64,000 bases of DNA. Source: an uncultured Candidatus Peribacteria bacterium (GTDB lineage: Bacteria; Patescibacteriota; Gracilibacteria; UBA1369). Positions 9,840 through 30,932 of this stretch are shown here, one piece after another. Location: the NCBI GenBank assembly GCA_964528305.1, contig CAZGSD010000002.1, positions 93,409 through 157,408 of the forward strand. Reading direction: 5' to 3'. The notes beneath the pieces were generated by a model. It worked only from the letters and a program-made list of their open reading frames with translations. It was not told where the DNA came from and made no database searches. The position numbers were made by a program, and so were the translations under genes. The first letter of the stretch is position 1, and each line of letters opens with the position of its first letter.

Positions 9840-12317
9840 ATGCTTGAATTAATTATCATCAATCTCATTCTCATCGCGGCCGGAGCATTATCGCTCTATG
9901 GCATATTCTGGCTAGCCAAAGAAAAATACCTGGAGCACCGCAACTTCCAGCGTTCACTCAACCTGGTTTTTCTAAAAGTGCAAATGGCTAAAAAAGAGTC
10001 CAAAGAAGAACAGGATCAGGAGCAAAATTCAGGCGCCAAAGACTTCAAAGAAGCCATTAGCATCATGGCCCAGATGTACGACTCACTACATTCCATCTAT
10101 TCAGGTGACTGGAAAAACCGTTTTACCGGAGAAGATTTTCTCTCACTAGAATACGTTGTACAGCAGGAACAGATTTATTTTTACATGGTAGTACCATCCA
10201 AACTCGTCTCTCTCATAGAAAAACAGATCACCGGTCTTTTCCCAGATGCCTATGTCGATCAAACCGAAGAGTATAACATTTTCCAACCGGATTCCTGCAC
10301 AGCAGCCAAAGCTCTCACTTTGAGCAAAAATTTCATGTACCCAATTCGTACTTTTCAACGTCTCAGTTCCGATCCAATTAACAATCTAACCAACGCTCTC
10401 TCCAAATTATCCAGCGAAGACGGAGCCGCCATACAAATCATGATACGTCCTACCGATGACTGGCAAAAAGCCGGCCGGGACGAAGCCAAAAATATACTCA
10501 ATCAAAAACCCAAGAAAAACAAAACCCACCCCCTCAACCCCATCAAGTGGATTGGCGCTTTTTTCCAATTCATGATGGGACAGGAATCAAAAGATAAATC
10601 ATCAGGCCCCGAAGCACCAGACCGCACTACCCCCATGACTGACGAAGAAGTCAAAGATTTGGAACAAAAAAACACCAGCAAAGGTTATGAAACAATCATT
10701 CGCGTCATTTGCGCAGCCAAAGATGCCCATGAGGCCAAATCCAATCTTACCAATATTGTCAGCACTTTCGCCCAATATTCATCACCAACCGCCAATAAAT
10801 TCTCTAGCGTCAAACGATACCCAGAGGAAAAAATCATCAACGATTACATTTTACGCCGCTTCACTTATCCCTGGTATCAACGCATTAAAAGAAAACTGAC
10901 TATTTTATCCAGCGAGGAATTAGCCTCAATTTTCCACTTCCCTAATACTCGCTTCAACAAAACTCCCAATATTCACTGGCAAAGCTACAAAATCGCTGCC
11001 ACACCCAAAAACATGCCCAAAGAAGGTCTACTTTTGGGACATAATCATTTCCGTGGTATCACCACCGAAATACGCATGAAAAGAGAAGATCGTTTCCGCC
11101 ACTTCTACGTTATCGGTCAAACCGGTACCGGTAAATCATCTATTTTTCAAATCATGGCCCGCCAGGATTTACGCAATAATGACGGCCTGGCCGTGGTCGA
11201 TCCCCACGGTGAATTAATCGATACCTTACTACCATTTGTTCCCAAACATCGAGCCGATGATGTTATTTATTTCAGTCCTGCGGATCAAGCCCGCCCCATG
11301 GGGCTCAACCTCCTAGAAGCTGATTCAGATGATGAAAAAGAATTGGTTGCCCTAGATGCCATGAATATCATGATTAAATTATTCGGCAATGAAATTTTCG
11401 GACCACGCATACAAGATTATTTTCGCAATGGTTGTCTCACGCTAATGTCCCATCCAGAAGGCGGCACTATCGTAGACATAGTTCGACTCTTCACCGACGA
11501 CGATTTCCAGCAGGAAAAAATGCAATATGTTAAAAACCCAGTGGTAAAATCTTTCTGGACGGATCAAATGGCCAAAACTGGCGCCCGGGAAAAACAGGAA
11601 ATCATACCCTATTTTGCCGCTAAATTCGGTCAATTTATCACTAACTCCATGATGCGCAACATCATCGGACAAACCCGCTCCGCTTTCGATTTTATCGATG
11701 TTATGCAACAAAAAAAGATTCTATTCATGAATCTTTCCAAAGGTGAAATCGGTGACATCAACTCCAAATTACTCGGTTTAATCATCGTTTCCAAACTTCA
11801 AATGGCCGCCCTCCGCCGCCAAAGATTTGCCAAAGAAGATCGTCAGGACTTCTTTATGTACATCGATGAATTCCAAAACTACATCACCGATTCCATCGAA
11901 AGCATACTATCTGAAGCTAGAAAATACCGTCTCTCACTCAATATGGCTCACCAATACATCGCCCAATTAGAAGGCGAAGATGGCAAGTCCAGAGTAAAAG
12001 ACGCTGTTTTCGGCAATGTCGGAACCATGATGTGCTACAAAATAGGCGCAACTGACGCAGAATTCATGGCCAAAGAAATGGCCCCAGTCTTCTCAGCCCA
12101 AGACATGATCAATGTTGATGCTTTTAAAGGTATAATGAAATTATCCATAGACGGACAACCTTCCGTACCTTTCTCCATCTCCGTCCCCTTACCTTGGCTC
12201 GAAAAAGGCGATAAAAAGGTCGGTGAAGCTGTACGCCAGCTCTCACGCCTCAAATTTGGCCGCGATCGTGAGTTTGTGGAGAGAGAAATCACCCGTAGAA
12301 TTGGCATTATTGAATAA
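9840..12317 (+). CDS. membrane-anchored VirD4/TraD-like (type IV coupling protein family) P-loop ATPase, paralog 1
   Basis: N-terminal TM helix, Walker A GQTGTGKSS, DPHGEL, RPMGLNLLE, Walker B FMYIDEFQN and EARKYRLSLNMAHQY. The ATG directly abuts the aspS TAA. I do not recognise the N-terminal ~400 aa. Confidence 0.7.
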   Translation: MLELIIINLILIAAGALSLYGIFWLAKEKYLEHRNFQRSLNLVFLKVQMAKKESKEEQDQEQNSGAKDFKEAISIMAQMYDSLHSIYSGDWKNRFTGEDFLSLEYVVQQEQIYFYMVVPSKLVSLIEKQITGLFPDAYVDQTEEYNIFQPDSCTAAKALTLSKNFMYPIRTFQRLSSDPINNLTNALSKLSSEDGAAIQIMIRPTDDWQKAGRDEAKNILNQKPKKNKTHPLNPIKWIGAFFQFMMGQESKDKSSGPEAPDRTTPMTDEEVKDLEQKNTSKGYETIIRVICAAKDAHEAKSNLTNIVSTFAQYSSPTANKFSSVKRYPEEKIINDYILRRFTYPWYQRIKRKLTILSSEELASIFHFPNTRFNKTPNIHWQSYKIAATPKNMPKEGLLLGHNHFRGITTEIRMKREDRFRHFYVIGQTGTGKSSIFQIMARQDLRNNDGLAVVDPHGELIDTLLPFVPKHRADDVIYFSPADQARPMGLNLLEADSDDEKELVALDAMNIMIKLFGNEIFGPRIQDYFRNGCLTLMSHPEGGTIVDIVRLFTDDDFQQEKMQYVKNPVVKSFWTDQMAKTGAREKQEIIPYFAAKFGQFITNSMMRNIIGQTRSAFDFIDVMQQKKILFMNLSKGEIGDINSKLLGLIIVSKLQMAALRRQRFAKEDRQDFFMYIDEFQNYITDSIESILSEARKYRLSLNMAHQYIAQLEGEDGKSRVKDAVFGNVGTMMCYKIGATDAEFMAKEMAPVFSAQDMINVDAFKGIMKLSIDGQPSVPFSISVPLPWLEKGDKKVGEAVRQLSRLKFGRDREFVEREITRRIGIIE

Positions 12318-24541: not shown

Positions 24542-27073
24542 ATGCCAGAACTGGCTAATCCACTAGAACAAATACTTGAAGGCGACATTATGCTGGGCCT
24601 GCTCAACTTACTGATCTGGGGCGCTATCATCATTATAGGCCTCAAATTACTGCGCAAATTTGCCCGTGATATTTTTATACTTCATCAAAATCGCAGTCAC
24701 GTCTGCCTAAAAATTCGCGTACCGCGTGAAGATTCCACTAAAGACAACGAAAAAAAAGAGGACAAAGATTTCAAAGAAAAAGTCAGCCTGATGGAACAGT
24801 GTTTTCGTAATATACATGAACTGTCCGAACTCAGTCTCACCAATATCATTCGTACCACACTCTTTGATTCCAATATTATTTCTTTTGAAATAGTCGCTCA
24901 GAAAAAAGTAATTGATTTTTATCTGATCACACCCGCCATCTATCGTGAATTGCTGGAAAAACAAATCACTGCCTACTATCAGGACGCCGACATCATTCCC
25001 GTAGAAAACTACCAAATCACCAGCCCGGGTCAGCATTTACGCATGTATTTTGCCTATCTTACCCAACCTTTCTGGTTTCCCTTCAAAACCTACAAAACCA
25101 CCGAAAACGACCCCCTCAATGATCTCACCAACATTTTTTCCAAGCTGGAAGACAATGAAATAGCCGGATTACAGGTGACACTTCGACCAATTCGCAGCCG
25201 CAAATACAATAAAATCATCGAACAAACTGCCTCAACATTATTCAAAGGCAAAAAAGTCAATCGTTTCCATATTCCAGGATTGGGCTTCCTCAACAATATC
25301 ATTGTCGGCCTCTTTTTTGGCTATGACAAAATCATCAAAGACAAACCGGAAGATCAGGGTGGTTTCGTCCGCATGCTCCAACCTCTGGAAGAGCGAGCAA
25401 AAAAGATGGGGGAAAAAGCCGCCCAACCATTGTTTCGCACTGTGATAAGATTTTTCGCTTCTGCCAGCACCACCCGCCGCGCCGAAGAAATCACTAACAA
25501 TGTCAATTTAGCTTTCAGCATGTTTCGCGACGAATCCTCCAACTGGTTTCAGACTCGGCGCGTGGTGCCAATCGACGCCATCAATAACCACTTCATGGCC
25601 TTCAACTACCGCAACAGGTTGATTGATACTTCTTTTGGGCCCTTTGGAGAAAAAAACAGTATCAACGGTCCAGAAGAAATCGCCTCCATCTTTCACCTAC
25701 CCTGTAGCCGCTACAATCACACCCCAGCCATCAATTGGCTGCCCTACAAAGTACTTCCAGCCCCAATAGAAACACCAAAAGAGGGAATTTTACTCGGCTA
25801 CAACTTGCACCGTGGCGTAAAAAAAGAAATTCGCATGCTACGTAAAGATCGCACCAGACATCATTACTGCATCGGTAAATCTGGTTCCGGAAAATCTGTT
25901 TTCTTAAGCTTCTTAGCCCGTCAAGATATTTTGGCTGGCGATGGAGTCGGTGTAATCGACCCACATGGAGATCTCATTGAAGAATTAACCAATTTCGTGC
26001 CAAAAGAACGGGCTAAAAACTGTATTATCTTTAATCCATCCGATTCCGAACGCCCCATGGGCTTAAACATACTAGAAGCCAAAACTCCCGAAGAAATGGA
26101 TATGGCCTCCAGCCAAGCCACCGAAATTTTCATCAAACTTTTCGGTGACGAAATTTTCGGACCACGCATCCAACATTATTTCCGCAACGCTTGCCTTACC
26201 TTGATGGAAGACCAAGAAGAAGGCGCCACCCTGATCGACGTCCCACGCGTTTTCGTCGACGATGAGTTCATGAAATACAAAGTCAGCAAAGTCAAAAACC
26301 CCGTGGTCCGCTCTTTTTGGGAACATGAATATGCCCACACCGGCGATCGCGAGAAACAAGAAATGATTCCTTACTTCTCCGCAAAATTCGGTCCATTCAT
26401 CACTAATTCCATCATGAGAAATACTATTGGGCAGACCAAATCTGCTTTCAATTTCCGTGAAGCGATGGATAAACAACAGATTTTGCTGATCAATCTCTCC
26501 AAAGGTAAAATCGGTGATCTCAACACACAACTCCTGGGACTGGTAATGGTTGCCAGAATTCAAATGGCCGCCATGAGCCGCGTGGACATACCAGAAGAAG
26601 CCCGCAAAGATTTTTATCTCTATGTAGATGAATTCCAAAATTTTTCCACCGACAGTTTCTGCTCCATTCTCTCCGAAGCTCGTAAATATCACCTGGCCCT
26701 GATCATGGCCAATCAATATATCAAACAGCTGGAAAAGAAAAATGACACCTCCATACGTGACGCTGTCTTTGGTAACGTCGGTACCATGATGTCTTTCAAA
26801 GTTGGTGCTGATGATGGCGAATATCTGGCCAAAGAATACGCACCAGTACTCACCGAACAGGACATCATCTCCATCGCCAATTTCAAAGCTTATATCAAGC
26901 TCAACATCAATAACACCACTTCACGACCATTTTCACTGGAAACAGTTTATGACATGAGTGGAGCCAACAAAAAAATCGGTGAAATCGTCACCCAGTATTC
27001 CCGCATCAAATATGGCCGTAAAAAAGAATTTGTCGATCAAGAAATTCGCGCCCGCATCGGCATAGAAGTTTAG
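24542..27073 (+). CDS. membrane-anchored VirD4/TraD-like P-loop ATPase, paralog 2
   Basis: N-terminal TM helix, Walker A GKSGSGKSV, DPHGDL, RPMGLNILE, Walker B YLYVDEFQN and EARKYHLALIMANQY. Long colinear blocks are shared with 9840..12317. It starts 6 nt after the glyQS stop. Confidence 0.7.
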   Translation: MPELANPLEQILEGDIMLGLLNLLIWGAIIIIGLKLLRKFARDIFILHQNRSHVCLKIRVPREDSTKDNEKKEDKDFKEKVSLMEQCFRNIHELSELSLTNIIRTTLFDSNIISFEIVAQKKVIDFYLITPAIYRELLEKQITAYYQDADIIPVENYQITSPGQHLRMYFAYLTQPFWFPFKTYKTTENDPLNDLTNIFSKLEDNEIAGLQVTLRPIRSRKYNKIIEQTASTLFKGKKVNRFHIPGLGFLNNIIVGLFFGYDKIIKDKPEDQGGFVRMLQPLEERAKKMGEKAAQPLFRTVIRFFASASTTRRAEEITNNVNLAFSMFRDESSNWFQTRRVVPIDAINNHFMAFNYRNRLIDTSFGPFGEKNSINGPEEIASIFHLPCSRYNHTPAINWLPYKVLPAPIETPKEGILLGYNLHRGVKKEIRMLRKDRTRHHYCIGKSGSGKSVFLSFLARQDILAGDGVGVIDPHGDLIEELTNFVPKERAKNCIIFNPSDSERPMGLNILEAKTPEEMDMASSQATEIFIKLFGDEIFGPRIQHYFRNACLTLMEDQEEGATLIDVPRVFVDDEFMKYKVSKVKNPVVRSFWEHEYAHTGDREKQEMIPYFSAKFGPFITNSIMRNTIGQTKSAFNFREAMDKQQILLINLSKGKIGDLNTQLLGLVMVARIQMAAMSRVDIPEEARKDFYLYVDEFQNFSTDSFCSILSEARKYHLALIMANQYIKQLEKKNDTSIRDAVFGNVGTMMSFKVGADDGEYLAKEYAPVLTEQDIISIANFKAYIKLNINNTTSRPFSLETVYDMSGANKKIGEIVTQYSRIKYGRKKEFVDQEIRARIGIEV

Positions 27074-27090
27074 CCGCACATTTACCAAAC

Positions 27091-28287
27091 ATGGATCCAT
27101 CCAATAAACAAATATCAAAATTAAAATTCTACTCCTTCCTATTCGCCTTTATTTTGCTACTGCAAATTATCGGGGTTGCTTTTTTTCTGCGTAATTCCAA
27201 CCGCCTACATTCCGCTAGTCTCAATCAAATCAATTCCCTGATCAGCGAAGTAGGCACACTCAAAGAAGAAAACCTACTACTCAATACCAGTCTCAATCAG
27301 GAGAAAAATCTGAATCAATTAAATGAACAAACCATTCGCCAAATCTACTTAAGCGTGGCAGCCAATCAATCCAACACCAAAGATTTGCAAACCAATCTAC
27401 TTAGCTATCAAAATTTTTTAGAAAATGAACGTCGCAAATTATCAGCAGAAAAGACATTACTCAACACCACCATACAAAATCAACAAAACACCATTCAGCA
27501 GTTGAAACAAAAAGAACAGGCCCAAGCAGCCAGCAATGAATTAAATGATAAAATCGACGCCATACTGTTTTTAGGAGAAAATCAAAAATTAACCGACACC
27601 ATACAATTAGCTATAATCAATCCACAAAAACAACAGACAACCCTGATCAGCATTCCACGCGATCTATACTTCGAAGGACGAAAAATCAATGAATATTACA
27701 AATTTTACGGTATAGAAAAAACCGCCGAGGTCGTTAACAAAATCACTAACATTAAAATTGATCATTATGTTAGCCTCAATTTCCAGGCTTTTATCGAATT
27801 AATCGATCTGCTGGGAGGACTTGATATTCAAATAGATAAAGCTCTACTAGATAATGCCTACCCAACAGCAAACGGCGGCTACAAAATAGTAACCTTCACG
27901 CCCGGCCTAGAACATATGACAGGGGAGCGCGTACTGGAATATGCCCGTTCCAGAAAAAGCACCAGTGATTTTGATCGCAGCCTGCGCCAACAAAAAATTC
28001 TGCAGGCCATAAGAGACAAATTAGCCAGTCTCAATATTATGAAAAATATTCAATTTTACCTGACCGCCTTTCAAAGTCTGCAAAAAAATCTACAAACCGA
28101 TTTCAATATCCTGGAAGCCATCGAACTTTTCGAACAACACAAAGCCAATCAGCTTTCCACCGGCCATAGCTTAAGCAACAGCAATTACCTCTATTCCTCA
28201 ACCAGCCTCCAGGGCCAATCAATACTCCTGCCAAAAGACGGCAACTTCCAGGCTTTCCAAAAATATTTAGCGGAATTGATTAACTAA
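27091..28287 (+). CDS. LytR-CpsA-Psr (LCP) family cell-wall polymer transferase with an N-terminal TM helix and coiled coil
   Basis: TDTIQLAIINP...LISIPRDLYF, IDHYVSLNFQAFIELIDLLGG and EYARSRKSTSDFDRSLRQQ. Confidence 0.85.
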   Translation: MDPSNKQISKLKFYSFLFAFILLLQIIGVAFFLRNSNRLHSASLNQINSLISEVGTLKEENLLLNTSLNQEKNLNQLNEQTIRQIYLSVAANQSNTKDLQTNLLSYQNFLENERRKLSAEKTLLNTTIQNQQNTIQQLKQKEQAQAASNELNDKIDAILFLGENQKLTDTIQLAIINPQKQQTTLISIPRDLYFEGRKINEYYKFYGIEKTAEVVNKITNIKIDHYVSLNFQAFIELIDLLGGLDIQIDKALLDNAYPTANGGYKIVTFTPGLEHMTGERVLEYARSRKSTSDFDRSLRQQKILQAIRDKLASLNIMKNIQFYLTAFQSLQKNLQTDFNILEAIELFEQHKANQLSTGHSLSNSNYLYSSTSLQGQSILLPKDGNFQAFQKYLAELIN

Positions 28288-29404
28288 GTAGACGGCGCTG
28301 TCTATAATCGGCAATTTCTTTCAGCGTCTTTTCAATAGAGTCAGTCAATTCTGGAAATACACCTTTATACAAATCACCATGCCAACGCAAAACAGCAGTT
28401 ATATTCTCCATAGATAAAGAATCCACATTTCGCATTAATAAACGCAATTTTTCCCTTCTATAGCGACTAATTATCTCCTGCCACGAAGCATCAGTAAACA
28501 CTCTATGAAGTATTCTCAAACTTTCAATTTGCGCAAAAGACAGTCCCTCAGCCATGACAGTGTCAAAACCCAGCATCTTAAACACGCTCTCTACCTGATC
28601 AGAGGCCAGCAGCAGTCTTTCAAGCCCAGCTCCATCCACAACAAGACACCTATCCCATGACCGCACATCAGTCACATAGTTAATCCCATCCCTATTCACC
28701 ACTACTGGAAACCATAACAAACACTCTATGGTGGCAATATCCAAATAGGATCCATTATCTAATTTATATAAAATTTCATTCCTATATCCCCAGGGAGCCA
28801 CTGTCACATCCCAATTACTAGTCAAAAAAGTATCTCTAGAATGATCCGGCTGCATCTGATCAGCAGTTAAACCAGCCTCCAACCAATACTTATACCACGG
28901 ATCAGCCGGTATTTCGAAATCAGCTTCAATTTTCAAATGACTACCAGATTTTTTAGCACCAGCTTCAACTTGCCTAGCAACCACATGGCCAGCACAATAA
29001 CTCACCAATAACCGCTCTTTTTTAAGACCAACATAATCAGTTAAAAATTTCATCACCCCAAATACAGAATTTCTATACAACCCTTCCGCCTCACTTCTAG
29101 CCATAATATGACCACCATTAATGGTTGTCATGGTAAACAAGCCCAAATGATGTGGCGATTTATCTTTCGAACTAAAATAATGTTGAAAATCAGCCAAGCG
29201 TATCGATGGCTGAATTTTCAAAAAATGTTCATCATCATAGATATTTACAAAATCCCCATATTTCTCATAAATATGAATCTCATCCAAACAATAATTAAAT
29301 TGTCCAGGAAACAAAGGAGAGACCACACTACTCCTCTCTATAGTAGGCCAAGGCAAAGTATTGTGATATAACTTCAACACCCCCAACATTGCGGCCAAAT
29401 CCAT
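28280..29404 (-). CDS. divergent stand-alone homolog of the class IIc alanyl-tRNA synthetase catalytic core
   Basis: By-eye alignment to E. coli AlaRS residues ~1-400: QPSIR vs QRCVR, [10 protein letters not shown] vs [18 protein letters not shown] vs [25 protein letters not shown] vs [31 protein letters not shown] vs VDTGMGLERIA. Many catalytic positions are changed. Confidence 0.5.
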   Translation of the reverse strand: [374 protein letters not shown]

Positions 29405-29436: not shown

Positions 29437-29446
29437 TAAAACTATA

Positions 29447-30028
29447 TCACCACCAGACCTTTTTCCAACCGATTAAATAAGCCAGTAAATTGGCCCCCAA
29501 ATGCAACAGGGGAGTGATGAGCAGTGCAGCAATCAAAACCGGCCAGGTTATTTGCCATGAAATCAAAAGTCCTGACCATATCCAGGCCCCAATAATAAAA
29601 TCCACTTGATCAAAAATCAGCCAGACCCGCCCGGGCGCAATATTTAAACGTCTTTTAAAAAAACTTTTGGCGACGTCTCCACTGATAGCCGCCAACCCCA
29701 AACCTCCACCAATCAGCAAAGCTATCCACCAATTTCCCCACCAGCCAGCCATTACTCCCATCCATTCATATCCACCTCCAAACAGCCCCATCAACCACAA
29801 AACCACTCCACCAAAAGCCCCACCCAGAGCAGCACTCAGCACCCCCGCCCACGTCTTATGATCACCCAAAACCCTTTTCCCACGCCACATCGCCCCACCG
29901 TCCAGCGGTAGCCAAAGCCCCTTAAACATACCCAGCCCATGCAACACCACCGGCGCCGCATTACCCAGATAAGCCGGTAAAAACAGTAGCAACACCTCAA
30001 TCAATATCCGTCCGAAATCATTTAGCAT
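29447..30028 (-). CDS. CarS-family (CDP-archaeol synthase-like, DUF46) integral membrane CTP-transferase
   Basis: FLPAYLGNAAPVV...PLDGG..WRGKRVLGDHKTWAGVL matches the CarS pattern LPAY.AN..PV...P.D.G....G.R.LGD.KTW.G. There are five or so TM helices. Confidence 0.7.
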   Translation of the reverse strand: MLNDFGRILIEVLLLFLPAYLGNAAPVVLHGLGMFKGLWLPLDGGAMWRGKRVLGDHKTWAGVLSAALGGAFGGVVLWLMGLFGGGYEWMGVMAGWWGNWWIALLIGGGLGLAAISGDVAKSFFKRRLNIAPGRVWLIFDQVDFIIGAWIWSGLLISWQITWPVLIAALLITPLLHLGANLLAYLIGWKKVWW

Positions 30029-30596
30029 AATACAAATCCACTATGGAAAATAAATTAGTAATAGACAGCACAACAGCCCAAAACAGCAAAACAGGATCCA
30101 GAATATTCCCACCACCCAGCCAGACCACCAGCCAAGCAAAATAAACAAAATATTTACTAAAAGAAAAAGGATAACGCCCAACTTCAATACCAAAACGCAA
30201 ATAATTCACGAAATAACTAACCACTATTTGCAGCATATAAAAGGCTGCCCAAAAAGCATCAGCCAAACCCCAAAAAATCAACCCCAGCATCAGCGGCACC
30301 ACATAAAAATTATCTATACAAACATCCAACGCCCGCCCCCGAATGCTAGCCCGCCCGGACACTCTAGCCAACACACCATCCACTCCATCCAGCAAATAAT
30401 TAGCCAGTAAAATCACCAGCACCAGCCAGGGAGCATACCCCAAAGCAAAAAACATCGGCACCACCAAACAGGCTCGAAACCAGGACACTTGATCGGCAGT
30501 TACCCCCACAGACAAGAGGCCTTTGGCCGGTTTATCCAGGACCCTATCCCTCCAAATTTTGGCCGAATTATAATACCATAGTAAATCTTTTTTCAT
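30018..30596 (-). CDS. CDP-alcohol phosphatidyltransferase
   Basis: Complete D(x)2DG(x)2AR(x)8G(x)3D(x)3D motif: LDGVDGVLARVSGRASIRGRALDVCID. It overlaps the CarS-like gene by 11 nt. Confidence 0.85.
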   Translation of the reverse strand: MKKDLLWYYNSAKIWRDRVLDKPAKGLLSVGVTADQVSWFRACLVVPMFFALGYAPWLVLVILLANYLLDGVDGVLARVSGRASIRGRALDVCIDNFYVVPLMLGLIFWGLADAFWAAFYMLQIVVSYFVNYLRFGIEVGRYPFSFSKYFVYFAWLVVWLGGGNILDPVLLFWAVVLSITNLFSIVDLYYAK

Positions 30597-30687: not shown

Positions 30688-30764
30688 GGCTGGGTAGCTC
30701 AGTTGGTTAGAGCGTGGGACTCATAAGCCCAAGGTCGAGAGTTCGATTCTCTCCCCAGCCACCA
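30688..30764 (+). tRNA. tRNA with CAU anticodon, elongator Met type (tRNA-Ile2/lysidine cannot be excluded), CCA encoded
   Basis: GGCTGGGTAGCTCAGTTGGTTAGAGCGTGGGACTCATAAGCCCAAGGTCGAGAGTTCGATTCTCTCCCCAGCCACCA. The 1-72 pair is G-C, so it is not an initiator. Confidence 0.85.
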
Positions 30765-30857: not shown

Positions 30858-30932
30858 TGGTTGCGGGGGTTGGATTCGAACCAACGACCTCCGGGTTATG
30901 AGCCCGACGAGCTGCCTCTGCTCTACCCCGCG
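30858..30932 (-). tRNA. initiator tRNA-fMet (CAU), CCA encoded
   Basis: The reverse complement CGCGGGGTAGAGCAGAGGCAGCTCGTCGGGCTCATAACCCGGAGGTCGTTGGTTCGAATCCAACCCCCGCAACCA has a C1/A72 mismatch and GGG/CCC in the anticodon stem. It is near-identical to E. coli tRNA-fMet. Confidence 0.9.

Follow-up and report, generated by a model that had tools for sequence, protein, structure and literature searches.

Minimal alanyl-tRNA synthetase paralogs of Patescibacteria and DPANN archaea, linked to TrmBL2-like regulators and tRNA genes

Introduction

What is the role of a protein that consists of little more than the core of alanyl-tRNA synthetase (AlaRS) and does not keep the residues by which that enzyme holds alanine? 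The question is raised by an open reading frame (ORF) at 28280-29404 on the minus strand of a 64-kb stretch of contig CAZGSD010000002.1 from an uncultured Candidatus Peribacteria bacterium (positions 1-64000, hereafter the window). An original prediction, made by eye from the sequence, had seen in its 374-aa product a stand-alone and highly divergent paralog of the AlaRS catalytic core, and had speculated that the enzyme might aminoacylate a lipid or cell-wall acceptor. We report here that the ORF is intact and belongs to an undescribed family, one of minimal AlaRS paralogs restricted to the Candidate Phyla Radiation (CPR, or Patescibacteria) and the DPANN archaea. Considered over the family as a whole, the gene has two linked partners, a TrmBL2-like regulator and tRNA or tRNA-like genes that abut it in the same orientation. 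Its function is in our view an accessory one, a housekeeping role as AlaRS being unlikely.

Paralogs of aminoacyl-tRNA synthetases (aaRSs) have repeatedly proved to be new enzymes, as with HisZ, AsnA, EpmA, MshC, the cyclodipeptide synthases and AcmF. To our knowledge, no synthetase has a more invariant architecture than AlaRS, and AcmF is the only described paralog of the AlaRS core. Synthetase-like paralogs as such are known; an AlaRS-core-derived family in a context of regulator and tRNA genes is unprecedented. The literature that we searched describes AcmF, the Tupanvirus mini-AlaRS and the split AlaRS of Nanoarchaeum equitans and does not describe this family, a 2022 review of aaRS paralogs lists no AlaRS-core paralog, and no TrmB-family protein was found reported as paired with a synthetase-like enzyme or fused to one through its C-domain. 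Because the adenylation machinery appears to be kept while the pocket is rebuilt, and because a regulator and tRNA genes travel along, the family is a candidate for acyl-tRNA chemistry of a new kind, and this in organisms about which most knowledge has been deduced from annotation. There is also a practical side. Some members carry the label 'alanyl-tRNA synthetase' from JGI, and such labels would falsely complete the aaRS set of a genome bin.

Relationship to alanyl-tRNA synthetase

Taken alone, the window protein has no match in Pfam, NCBIfam or PDB sequence searches, and tblastn with E. coli AlaRS does not detect its ORF. Kinship to AlaRS became significant only because a family profile and a structure model were used rather than the single sequence. 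A database search gave 66 homologs, almost all of them stand-alone and 370-405 aa long, and the family profile was built from 46 of these. Weak matches to PF01411 occur in just six of the 46 (best E 6e-6), and P0101, a longer relative, reaches 23.9 bits against this model, under its 30.3-bit cutoff. Searched against the PDB, the 46-member profile finds AlaRS catalytic domains first (human AlaRS, E 4e-8) and then archaeal and bacterial AlaRS, with no match to GlyQ, the alpha subunit of bacterial glycyl-tRNA synthetase (GlyRS). With hhalign, the profile aligns to residues 4-290 of E. coli AlaRS at 92% probability (E 8e-7), and identity to AlaRS is 14-17%. For this comparison, the E. coli sequence was checked residue by residue against PDB 3HXU. 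All of the motif pairs noted by eye in the original prediction are reproduced in the alignment, among them QPSIR/QRCVR, HHLGLFTM/HHTFFEM, KERLLVSY/KERLWVTV and VVDGAGLER/VDTGMGLER. The similarity to tRNA-synt_2c that had been anticipated was thus absent from the single sequence, whereas the family profile and the structure searches match AlaRS significantly.

The structural comparison points the same way. An AlphaFold2 model of the window protein (pLDDT 95.2, pTM 0.92) was compared with the PDB by Foldseek, and the top 27 matches are N-terminal fragments of AlaRS, with E from 1.4e-16 to 3e-7 and a best TM of 0.70 across the entire window protein. The runners-up are bacterial GlyRS alpha, at E ~1e-6 and TM ~0.35, and then other class II enzymes. 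As modelled, the fold is AlaRS-like, and the reading of the protein as a stand-alone, highly divergent paralog of the AlaRS catalytic core is borne out. GlyQ has an AlaRS-related core, is the sister of AlaRS in subclass IId and shares with the family the minimal concept of a catalytic domain plus ATL, the name given to the helical tRNA-recognition domain of AlaRS (PMC4938167; bioRxiv 10.1101/2023.05.29.542759). However, its structural match is much weaker and lies below all AlaRS structures, and the Trp and the acid equivalent to its Trp115/Glu156-type glycine recognition are absent from the family.

From the secondary structure of the model, the alignment to E. coli AlaRS 4-242 and the Foldseek matches, the class IId catalytic (aminoacylation-type) domain spans residues ~1-270 (28595-29404, minus strand). 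Residues ~271-374 (28283-28594, minus strand) make up an ATL-like helical domain. These C-terminal ~100 residues align to the beginning of the AlaRS tRNA-recognition domain, as had been proposed, and in the profile-PDB alignment R301 and D305 correspond to the Arg and the Asp (R-x-x-x-D) of the AlaRS RVIADH motif. Conserved in this domain are E294, R297, H300, R301, D305, R316 and K319. The protein stops ~60-80 residues short of the end of the AlaRS tRNA-recognition domain, and both the editing and the C-Ala domain are missing, in agreement with the original prediction. The C-terminus, at residue 374, is fixed by a convergent LytR-CpsA-Psr gene (27091-28287, plus strand) which overlaps the last 8 nt of the ORF, so that no space is left for either domain; nor is there room for a downstream tRNA-like gene. 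At the other end, the ATG at 29404 is backed by the N-termini of homologs, while one recorded gene call (P0001) begins five codons later.

The active site

In the structure of AlaRS with ATP and alanine, the adenine is stacked between the motif-2 Phe and the motif-3 Arg, and the alpha-phosphate of ATP is held by the motif-2 Arg (PMC12143591). The alpha-amino group of alanine is anchored by Asp235, while Trp170 closes the pocket and Val214 contacts the methyl group (PMC12143591, PMC4938167). Both Asp235 and Trp170 are absolutely conserved across AlaRS (PMC4938167). We counted conservation at these positions in the 46 family sequences, which are 23-51% identical to the window protein.

On the ATP side, the family agrees with AlaRS. 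Within the motif-2 region (residues 64-97; 29114-29215, minus strand), R69 and F90 are invariant in all 46 sequences and correspond to E. coli R69 (alpha-phosphate) and F90 (adenine stacking), and G97 is invariant as well. E210, the counterpart of E. coli E183, does not vary. The same is true of G260-x-E262-R263 (E. coli G239-x-E241-R242) in motif 3, which runs from V256 through D-G-A-G-L-E to R263 (28616-28639, minus strand); R263 is found in 46 of 46. The residue equivalences in motifs 2 and 3 are robust in these alignments, and they show that the adenylate-forming residues, that is the motif-2 Arg and Phe and the motif-3 Arg, are kept.

The alanine side is different. At the position of D235, the family has Ile (31 of 46), Val (14) or Leu (1), and V256 in the window protein. 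The W170 position is variable, with Trp in at most 28 of 46 sequences if the loop is shifted by one. Judged by alignment, the amino-acid anchors of AlaRS and GlyRS alpha, Asp235 and Trp170, are therefore lost, and the altered substrate-binding positions that the original prediction had remarked on are real. In place of the AlaRS sequence GPCGPC(T/S)E stands a family signature, PWGYRNE (residues 204-210; 28775-28795, minus strand), with P204, G206, R208, N209 and E210 invariant and W205 and Y207 nearly so. D72 in the motif-2 region is an invariant specific to the family, and further ones include R208, N209 and D305. In the strand LDIATIE (residues 221-227; 28724-28744, minus strand), T225 and E227 are present in 46 of 46 and D222 in 45. 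These residues suggest that a strictly conserved polar pocket has newly arisen in the family. By hhalign, D222, T225 and E227 fall on E. coli E209, N212 and V214, and by hmmsearch against human AlaRS the strand is offset by five residues, which makes these equivalences alignment-dependent and the counterparts of V214 and N212 provisional. Two remote relatives, P0194 and P0196, were tried as bridges for the strand region 196-235 and gave no alignment across it.

Compared with the N-terminal fragments of AlaRS (PDB 3HXU, 4XEM, 5KNN), the family shares the same fold over its full length, the motif-2 Arg and Phe, the GxGxER of motif 3, the KERL strand and the R...D of the RVIADH helix. It differs in having PWGYRNE and D72, R208, N209, T225 and E227 where AlaRS has Asp235, Trp170 and GPCGPC(T/S)E. 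The residue pattern is that expected of an adenylate-forming enzyme with a rebuilt substrate pocket. The window copy carries every family-invariant residue and is therefore intact.

The family and its hosts

An exhaustive profile search of 1.84 billion representatives retrieved 203 clusters, defined at 50% identity, at E<1e-10, with members nearly all 350-405 aa long. Longer members of 522-533 aa are P0002, P0003, P0085 and P0101, and the 543-aa product of locus L043, found in a genome scan, can be grouped with these. When one genome was scanned for each of 185,579 species, 36 loci came to light, all of them in Patescibacteria, in DPANN archaea or in bins whose labels are evidently unreliable. 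The CPR hosts are Vogel-, Morani-, Sacchari- and Paceibacterota and Berkelbacteria, and the DPANN hosts are Woese-, Pace- and Nanoarchaeota and Iainarchaeum. Bacterial and archaeal members are mixed in a neighbour-joining tree, and the gene has therefore been exchanged between CPR and DPANN. In a Nanoarchaeota contig the gene is duplicated in tandem (L013:8535-10858), and each copy groups with a different deep clade of the tree. The family is not covered by any model in Pfam or NCBIfam. There is no relative among the viral contigs of IMG/VR, and a viral or mobile origin, which we had considered, is unsupported.

Two remote profile matches, P0194 (1488 aa) and P0196 (910 aa), represent a different type of AlaRS-core paralog. 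Each has two tandem AlaRS-like units, catalytic plus helical, and a Glu at the position of E. coli D235 as in AcmF. The long C-terminal extension of P0194 resembles GAF and histidine-kinase domains, judged by eye alone.

A TrmBL2-like partner

All-against-all clustering of the flanking ORFs revealed one conserved protein partner and no other. This is a TrmB-like protein of ~245 aa, encoded within 1 kb of the family gene in 14 of 37 distinct loci and always upstream on the opposite strand; in L035 there is only a weak TrmB-like fragment of 97 aa, on the downstream side. The partner consists of an N-terminal TrmB-type winged helix-turn-helix (wHTH; PF01978) and a C-terminal domain, and extra paralogs are often close by. 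A profile of the partner aligns with PDB 5BPD from end to end (E 3e-13). That structure is of TrmBL2, an archaeal chromatin and regulator protein, and the organization of wHTH plus C-terminal domain is that of the TrmBL2/TrmB regulators (PDB 5BPD, 3QPH). Several AlaRS-like proteins carry at their C-terminus a fused C-domain of the partner from which the HTH is missing (the L043 product, P0002, P0003, P0085, P0101 and P0134). With adjacent and fused cases taken together, 15-16 of the 37 loci have the partner.

Adjacent or fused, the TrmBL2-like partner is found in 18 of 41 distinct loci, plus the weak case of L035. The link occurs in both deep clades of the family tree and also in the subclade of the window protein itself. 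There, a divergent TrmB gene accompanies P0007 and P0021, the fusion proteins P0002 and P0003 share 54-55% identity with the window protein, and the loci with the link include L044, L046 and L048. Loci without TrmB have unrelated upstream neighbours according to Pfam (MazF, PaaX-like, peptidases, integrase, RNase HII, HD). As a separate observation, a DUF4325 protein adjoins the AlaRS-like gene in two distant loci (L026:1277-1567 and L048:7207-7500), and the two copies are 63% identical.

tRNA and tRNA-like partners

In the 37 distinct loci, which amount to 519 kb, ARAGORN predicts 36 tRNA genes. Of these, 15 (from 10 loci) are no more than 250 nt away from the family gene, against ~1.5 expected, and all 15 are co-oriented with it, compared with 15 of the 21 distal ones. 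A covariance model made from four of the proximal tRNAs was used to seek further genes of this kind and detected three more tRNA-like genes which start at or inside the stop codon of the family gene (L026, L031, L033). Two further cases come from the subclade of the window protein. In L046, a tRNA-Val(TAC) is accompanied by a tRNA-Ile(TAT) that ends 10 nt upstream of the family gene, and in L044 a tRNA-Val lies 40 nt downstream of it. In total, abutting and co-oriented tRNA or tRNA-like genes are present in 14 of 41 loci, an arrangement that would be expected of a dedicated synthetase and tRNA such as PylRS and tRNAPyl, and one not seen in the window.

Certain identities are seen repeatedly: five loci have Ile(TAT), four have Val(TAC), several have Leu-like or long-arm tRNAs, and one subclade has Ser(GGA). 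Both deep clades contain cases of Ile(TAT) and Val(TAC), and the linked tRNA is never tRNA-Ala. Next to the housekeeping tRNAs on the same contigs, the linked tRNAs stand out by D-loops without GG and by T-loops with GUGC or GAUC rather than GUUC. In L018 an ordinary tRNA-Ile(TAT) is also present, 4.5 kb away. Some linked tRNAs have degenerate anticodon loops (G33, C33, or a pyrimidine at position 37). Four elements go further and have normal acceptor, D and T arms, with a helix of 8-10 bp and a loop of 4-5 nt in place of the anticodon arm, and therefore cannot decode (L026:2756-2833, L031:11087-11168, the first L033 element at L033:9230-9311, and L027:11093-11172). These genes start at or inside the stop codon of the AlaRS-like gene, so that processing of the RNase P type would strip the stop codon from the mRNA. 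In most loci the 5' end of the tRNA faces the family gene, and insertion of an integrase-type island, which occurs at the 3' end of a tRNA, does not fit.

A G5:U68 wobble is often seen in the acceptor stems of these tRNAs (L018:11278-11350, L033:9317-9392, L037:3252-3324, L027:11093-11172 and L026:2756-2833), and the L026 element also has G3:U70. It is possible that G5:U68 is an identity element for an AlaRS-derived enzyme, although G:U pairs are common in AT-rich genomes.

Possible functions of the enzyme

With a TrmBL2-like protein and tRNA genes as its partners, and with the helical domain that binds the acceptor stem retained, the family appears to have a tRNA-type acceptor. We favour an ATP-dependent enzyme resembling an acyl-tRNA synthetase, with a substrate other than alanine, whose target is the acceptor end of certain tRNAs or tRNA-like RNAs and which is regulated by a TrmBL2-type protein, and we give this reading about an even chance of being correct. 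The protein would bind ATP and activate a carboxylate other than alanine, which would be held in a way different from that in which AlaRS holds an alpha-amino acid. The activated group would be passed to the 3' end of particular tRNAs or tRNA-like RNAs, recognized by their acceptor stem. A separate TrmB-type partner may control expression in response to a related ligand, and a fused TrmB C-domain may control the enzyme directly on such a ligand, allosterically or by assembly. A bolder version, which we advance tentatively and think less probable, is that of a new acyl-tRNA synthetase, derived from AlaRS, that has RNA substrates of its own transferred along with it and would place a non-alanine amino acid or a non-amino carboxylate on dedicated tRNAs and tRNA-like RNAs. 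These substrates would be the species with UAU and UAC anticodons and the variants with a non-decoding arm, again recognized through the acceptor stem, and a TrmBL2-type sensor would control the system. If this were true, CPR and DPANN would possess either a non-ribosomal acyl-donor system or a local device for recoding AUA and GUA, depending on whether the RNAs reach the ribosome.

Several points weigh against the favoured enzyme. The window gene is an orphan copy with neither partner in cis: the 64-kb window has no TrmB-like gene, and no atypical tRNA was found in it, a filter-free search of 25.5-32.5 kb included. About 15 of 41 loci, mostly of one archaeal clade, have neither the regulator nor a tRNA partner. 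Substrate and catalysis are predicted from sequence and a model; the register of the strand 221-227, as described above, differs between hhalign and hmmsearch; and the retained Arg and Phe could bind A76 of a charged tRNA instead of ATP. The unusual loops of the linked tRNAs were examined in a converse test as well. Such loops had called to mind the staphylococcal non-proteogenic tRNA-Gly, which has UGC for UUC, interacts poorly with EF-Tu and the ribosome and feeds cell-wall synthesis (PMC7826273); with its GUGC T-loops and altered D-loops it resembles several of the abutting tRNAs, and the likeness is one of resemblance only. Metagenome contigs were scanned for the signature of GG-less D-arm plus GUGC. 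More than 120 carry it, and among the 80 loci that were fetched (L050-L129) none encodes an AlaRS-like or TrmB-like protein. tRNA-Phe(GAA) makes up 50 of the 71 signature-matching tRNAs, several of them in arrays of 12-28 tRNAs in AT-rich DNA. The elbow variant is thus a widespread tRNA type, neither specific to the module nor evidence of non-ribosomal use, and we rejected the GUGC T-loop as a mark of non-proteogenic tRNAs dedicated to the enzyme, the variant being common and usually unlinked. The argument that is left consists of the enrichment in proximity, the recurrent anticodons and the non-decoding variants. As an observation in its own right, the elbow variant combines a GG-less D-loop, AGTAGTA, with the T-loop GUGC(A/G)A, and occurs in AT-rich marine and freshwater contigs, with many matches at contig ends.

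Among other explanations, the family might consist of aminoacyl-tRNA-dependent transferases of the AcmF type, which would form no adenylate and would bind a charged tRNA in order to transfer its aminoacyl group to the amine of a small molecule, a lipid or the cell wall. AcmF, the one characterized AlaRS-core paralog, acts in ascamycin biosynthesis with Ala-tRNA as donor; it is without most ATP-binding residues and keeps Glu232 at the D235 position for the alanyl amine (PMC12945691). It shows the same truncation to two domains, aminoacylation and tRNA recognition, and like the family it is non-canonical at the N212 and D235 positions. A link to tRNA genes suits a tRNA-dependent enzyme equally well, and the window gene follows lipid head-group genes. 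Yet the family is the opposite of AcmF, with which it was compared by the published description: its ATP residues are invariant, and it has Ile or Val at the D235 position where AcmF has Glu. Moreover, AcmF is encoded in a Streptomyces biosynthetic cluster, whereas the family genes lie beside TrmBL2-like and tRNA genes in CPR and DPANN genomes, and no biosynthetic-cluster context was seen at the family loci inspected. We therefore think a transferase of this type unlikely.

The same low probability applies to a regulatory or sensor subunit resembling HisZ, in which the core would bind a ligand, an uncharged tRNA or both, and act together with the TrmBL2-like protein on transcription. It would explain why the sole conserved protein partner is a wHTH regulator and why the C-domain of that regulator, without its HTH, has been fused repeatedly to the AlaRS-like core. 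In E. coli, AlaRS acts as an alanine-responsive repressor of its own gene. However, a strictly invariant catalytic set of Arg, Phe and Arg together with a dense polar pocket is more typical of an enzyme, a divergent pair of regulator and target is the commonest layout for the local regulator of an enzyme gene, and the window copy and many others have no regulator nearby.

Gene order in the window raised the further idea that the enzyme directly aminoacylates a lipid head group or a cell-wall polymer made by its neighbours. As the original prediction had noted, the gene lies on the same strand just downstream of a CarS-like gene (29447-30028) and a CDP-alcohol phosphatidyltransferase gene (30018-30596), which overlap each other (29447-30596, minus strand), and it has a promoter-like site of its own (TTGGAA-16 nt-TG-TATAGT; 29441-29468, minus strand) spanning the end of the CarS-like gene and the 42-nt gap between the two genes. 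No terminator-like site was found between the CarS-like gene and the ORF, so that transcription from its own promoter and read-through are both possible. The same-strand adjacency, the short gap and the LytR-CpsA-Psr gene on the other side all speak for such a role. The promoter-like site speaks against it, and so do the ATL-type helical domain and the tRNA linkage, which point to an RNA acceptor. Beyond this organism, the adjacency vanishes: CarS, CDP-OH transferase and LytR surround the gene only in three short contigs of the same organism (L005-L007), and the CarS/CDP-alcohol-transferase adjacency is absent from the 40 other distinct family loci. A search of all loci for homologs of CarS, CDP-OH transferase, LytR, TraG and MurC yielded them in the contigs of this organism and nowhere else, and the genes around P0006, P0032 and P0059 are unrelated from one locus to the next. 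A lipid operon as a property of the family is accordingly rejected. That the gene follows two lipid head-group genes here is an accident of gene order in this lineage, the lipid or cell-wall acceptor read from it in the original prediction lacks comparative support, and direct acylation by this enzyme of anything made by the CarS-like, CDP-alcohol-transferase or LytR neighbours is very improbable.

Least probable of all, and hardly to be expected, is a housekeeping role, whether as a mini-AlaRS that charges tRNA-Ala, like the Tupanvirus enzyme, or as one subunit of a split AlaRS, like AlaRS-alpha of N. equitans (PMC10036535), for although the hosts are CPR and DPANN with reduced genomes and there is no alaS in the window, those two are true AlaRSs with conserved motifs and an alanine pocket, which the family is not, given that the alanine-binding residues are gone, that no scanned member matches tRNA-synt_2c better than E 6e-6, that the gene was found at so few of the species scanned although CPR and DPANN generally must charge tRNA-Ala, that a tandem duplicate and TrmB-domain fusions exist, and that tRNA-Ala is never among the linked tRNAs. 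Neither a canonical alaS nor a C-terminal half of AlaRS was found in the window or in ~550 kb of flanks of 43 loci, flanks too short to be informative. Between the two possibilities that the original prediction had raised, a paralog of new specificity is thus the likelier, as it had supposed, on account of the lost alanine residues, the patchy distribution, the duplicate and the fusions.

Other features of the window

The tRNA genes closest to the AlaRS-like ORF are of the ordinary tRNA(CAT) kind. There are two of them, 1.3-1.45 kb upstream of the ORF and past the two lipid genes, at 30688-30764 (plus strand) and, back to back with that gene, 30858-30932 (minus strand). The latter is co-oriented with the string of CDP-OH, CarS and AlaRS-like genes, and it has the features of an initiator, namely a mismatch of C1 with A72 and an anticodon stem that contains three G-C pairs.

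The CarS-like gene scores 137 bits against a cutoff of 148 on the NCBIfam model for CDP-archaeol synthase, and the best match of the CDP-alcohol phosphatidyltransferase is archaetidylinositol-phosphate synthase. The lipid head-group pair at 29447-30596 (minus strand) is thus of archaeal type, in DNA that otherwise resembles that of a CPR bacterium (MurC, LytR). A sigma-70 region-4 protein is encoded on contig L005, from the same organism as the window.

Two paralogs of a TraG/VirD4-like type IV coupling protein, 43% identical, are encoded at 9840-12317 and 24542-27073 (both plus strand), one of them directly after a GlyRS gene. On the plus strand of the window, GC skew is -0.24 overall, and its cumulative curve does not change sign anywhere in the 64 kb. 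This asymmetry in strand composition is extreme and independent of gene orientation, the skew at third codon positions being -0.50 in 19 plus-strand genes and, read on the coding strand, +0.63 in 11 minus-strand genes.

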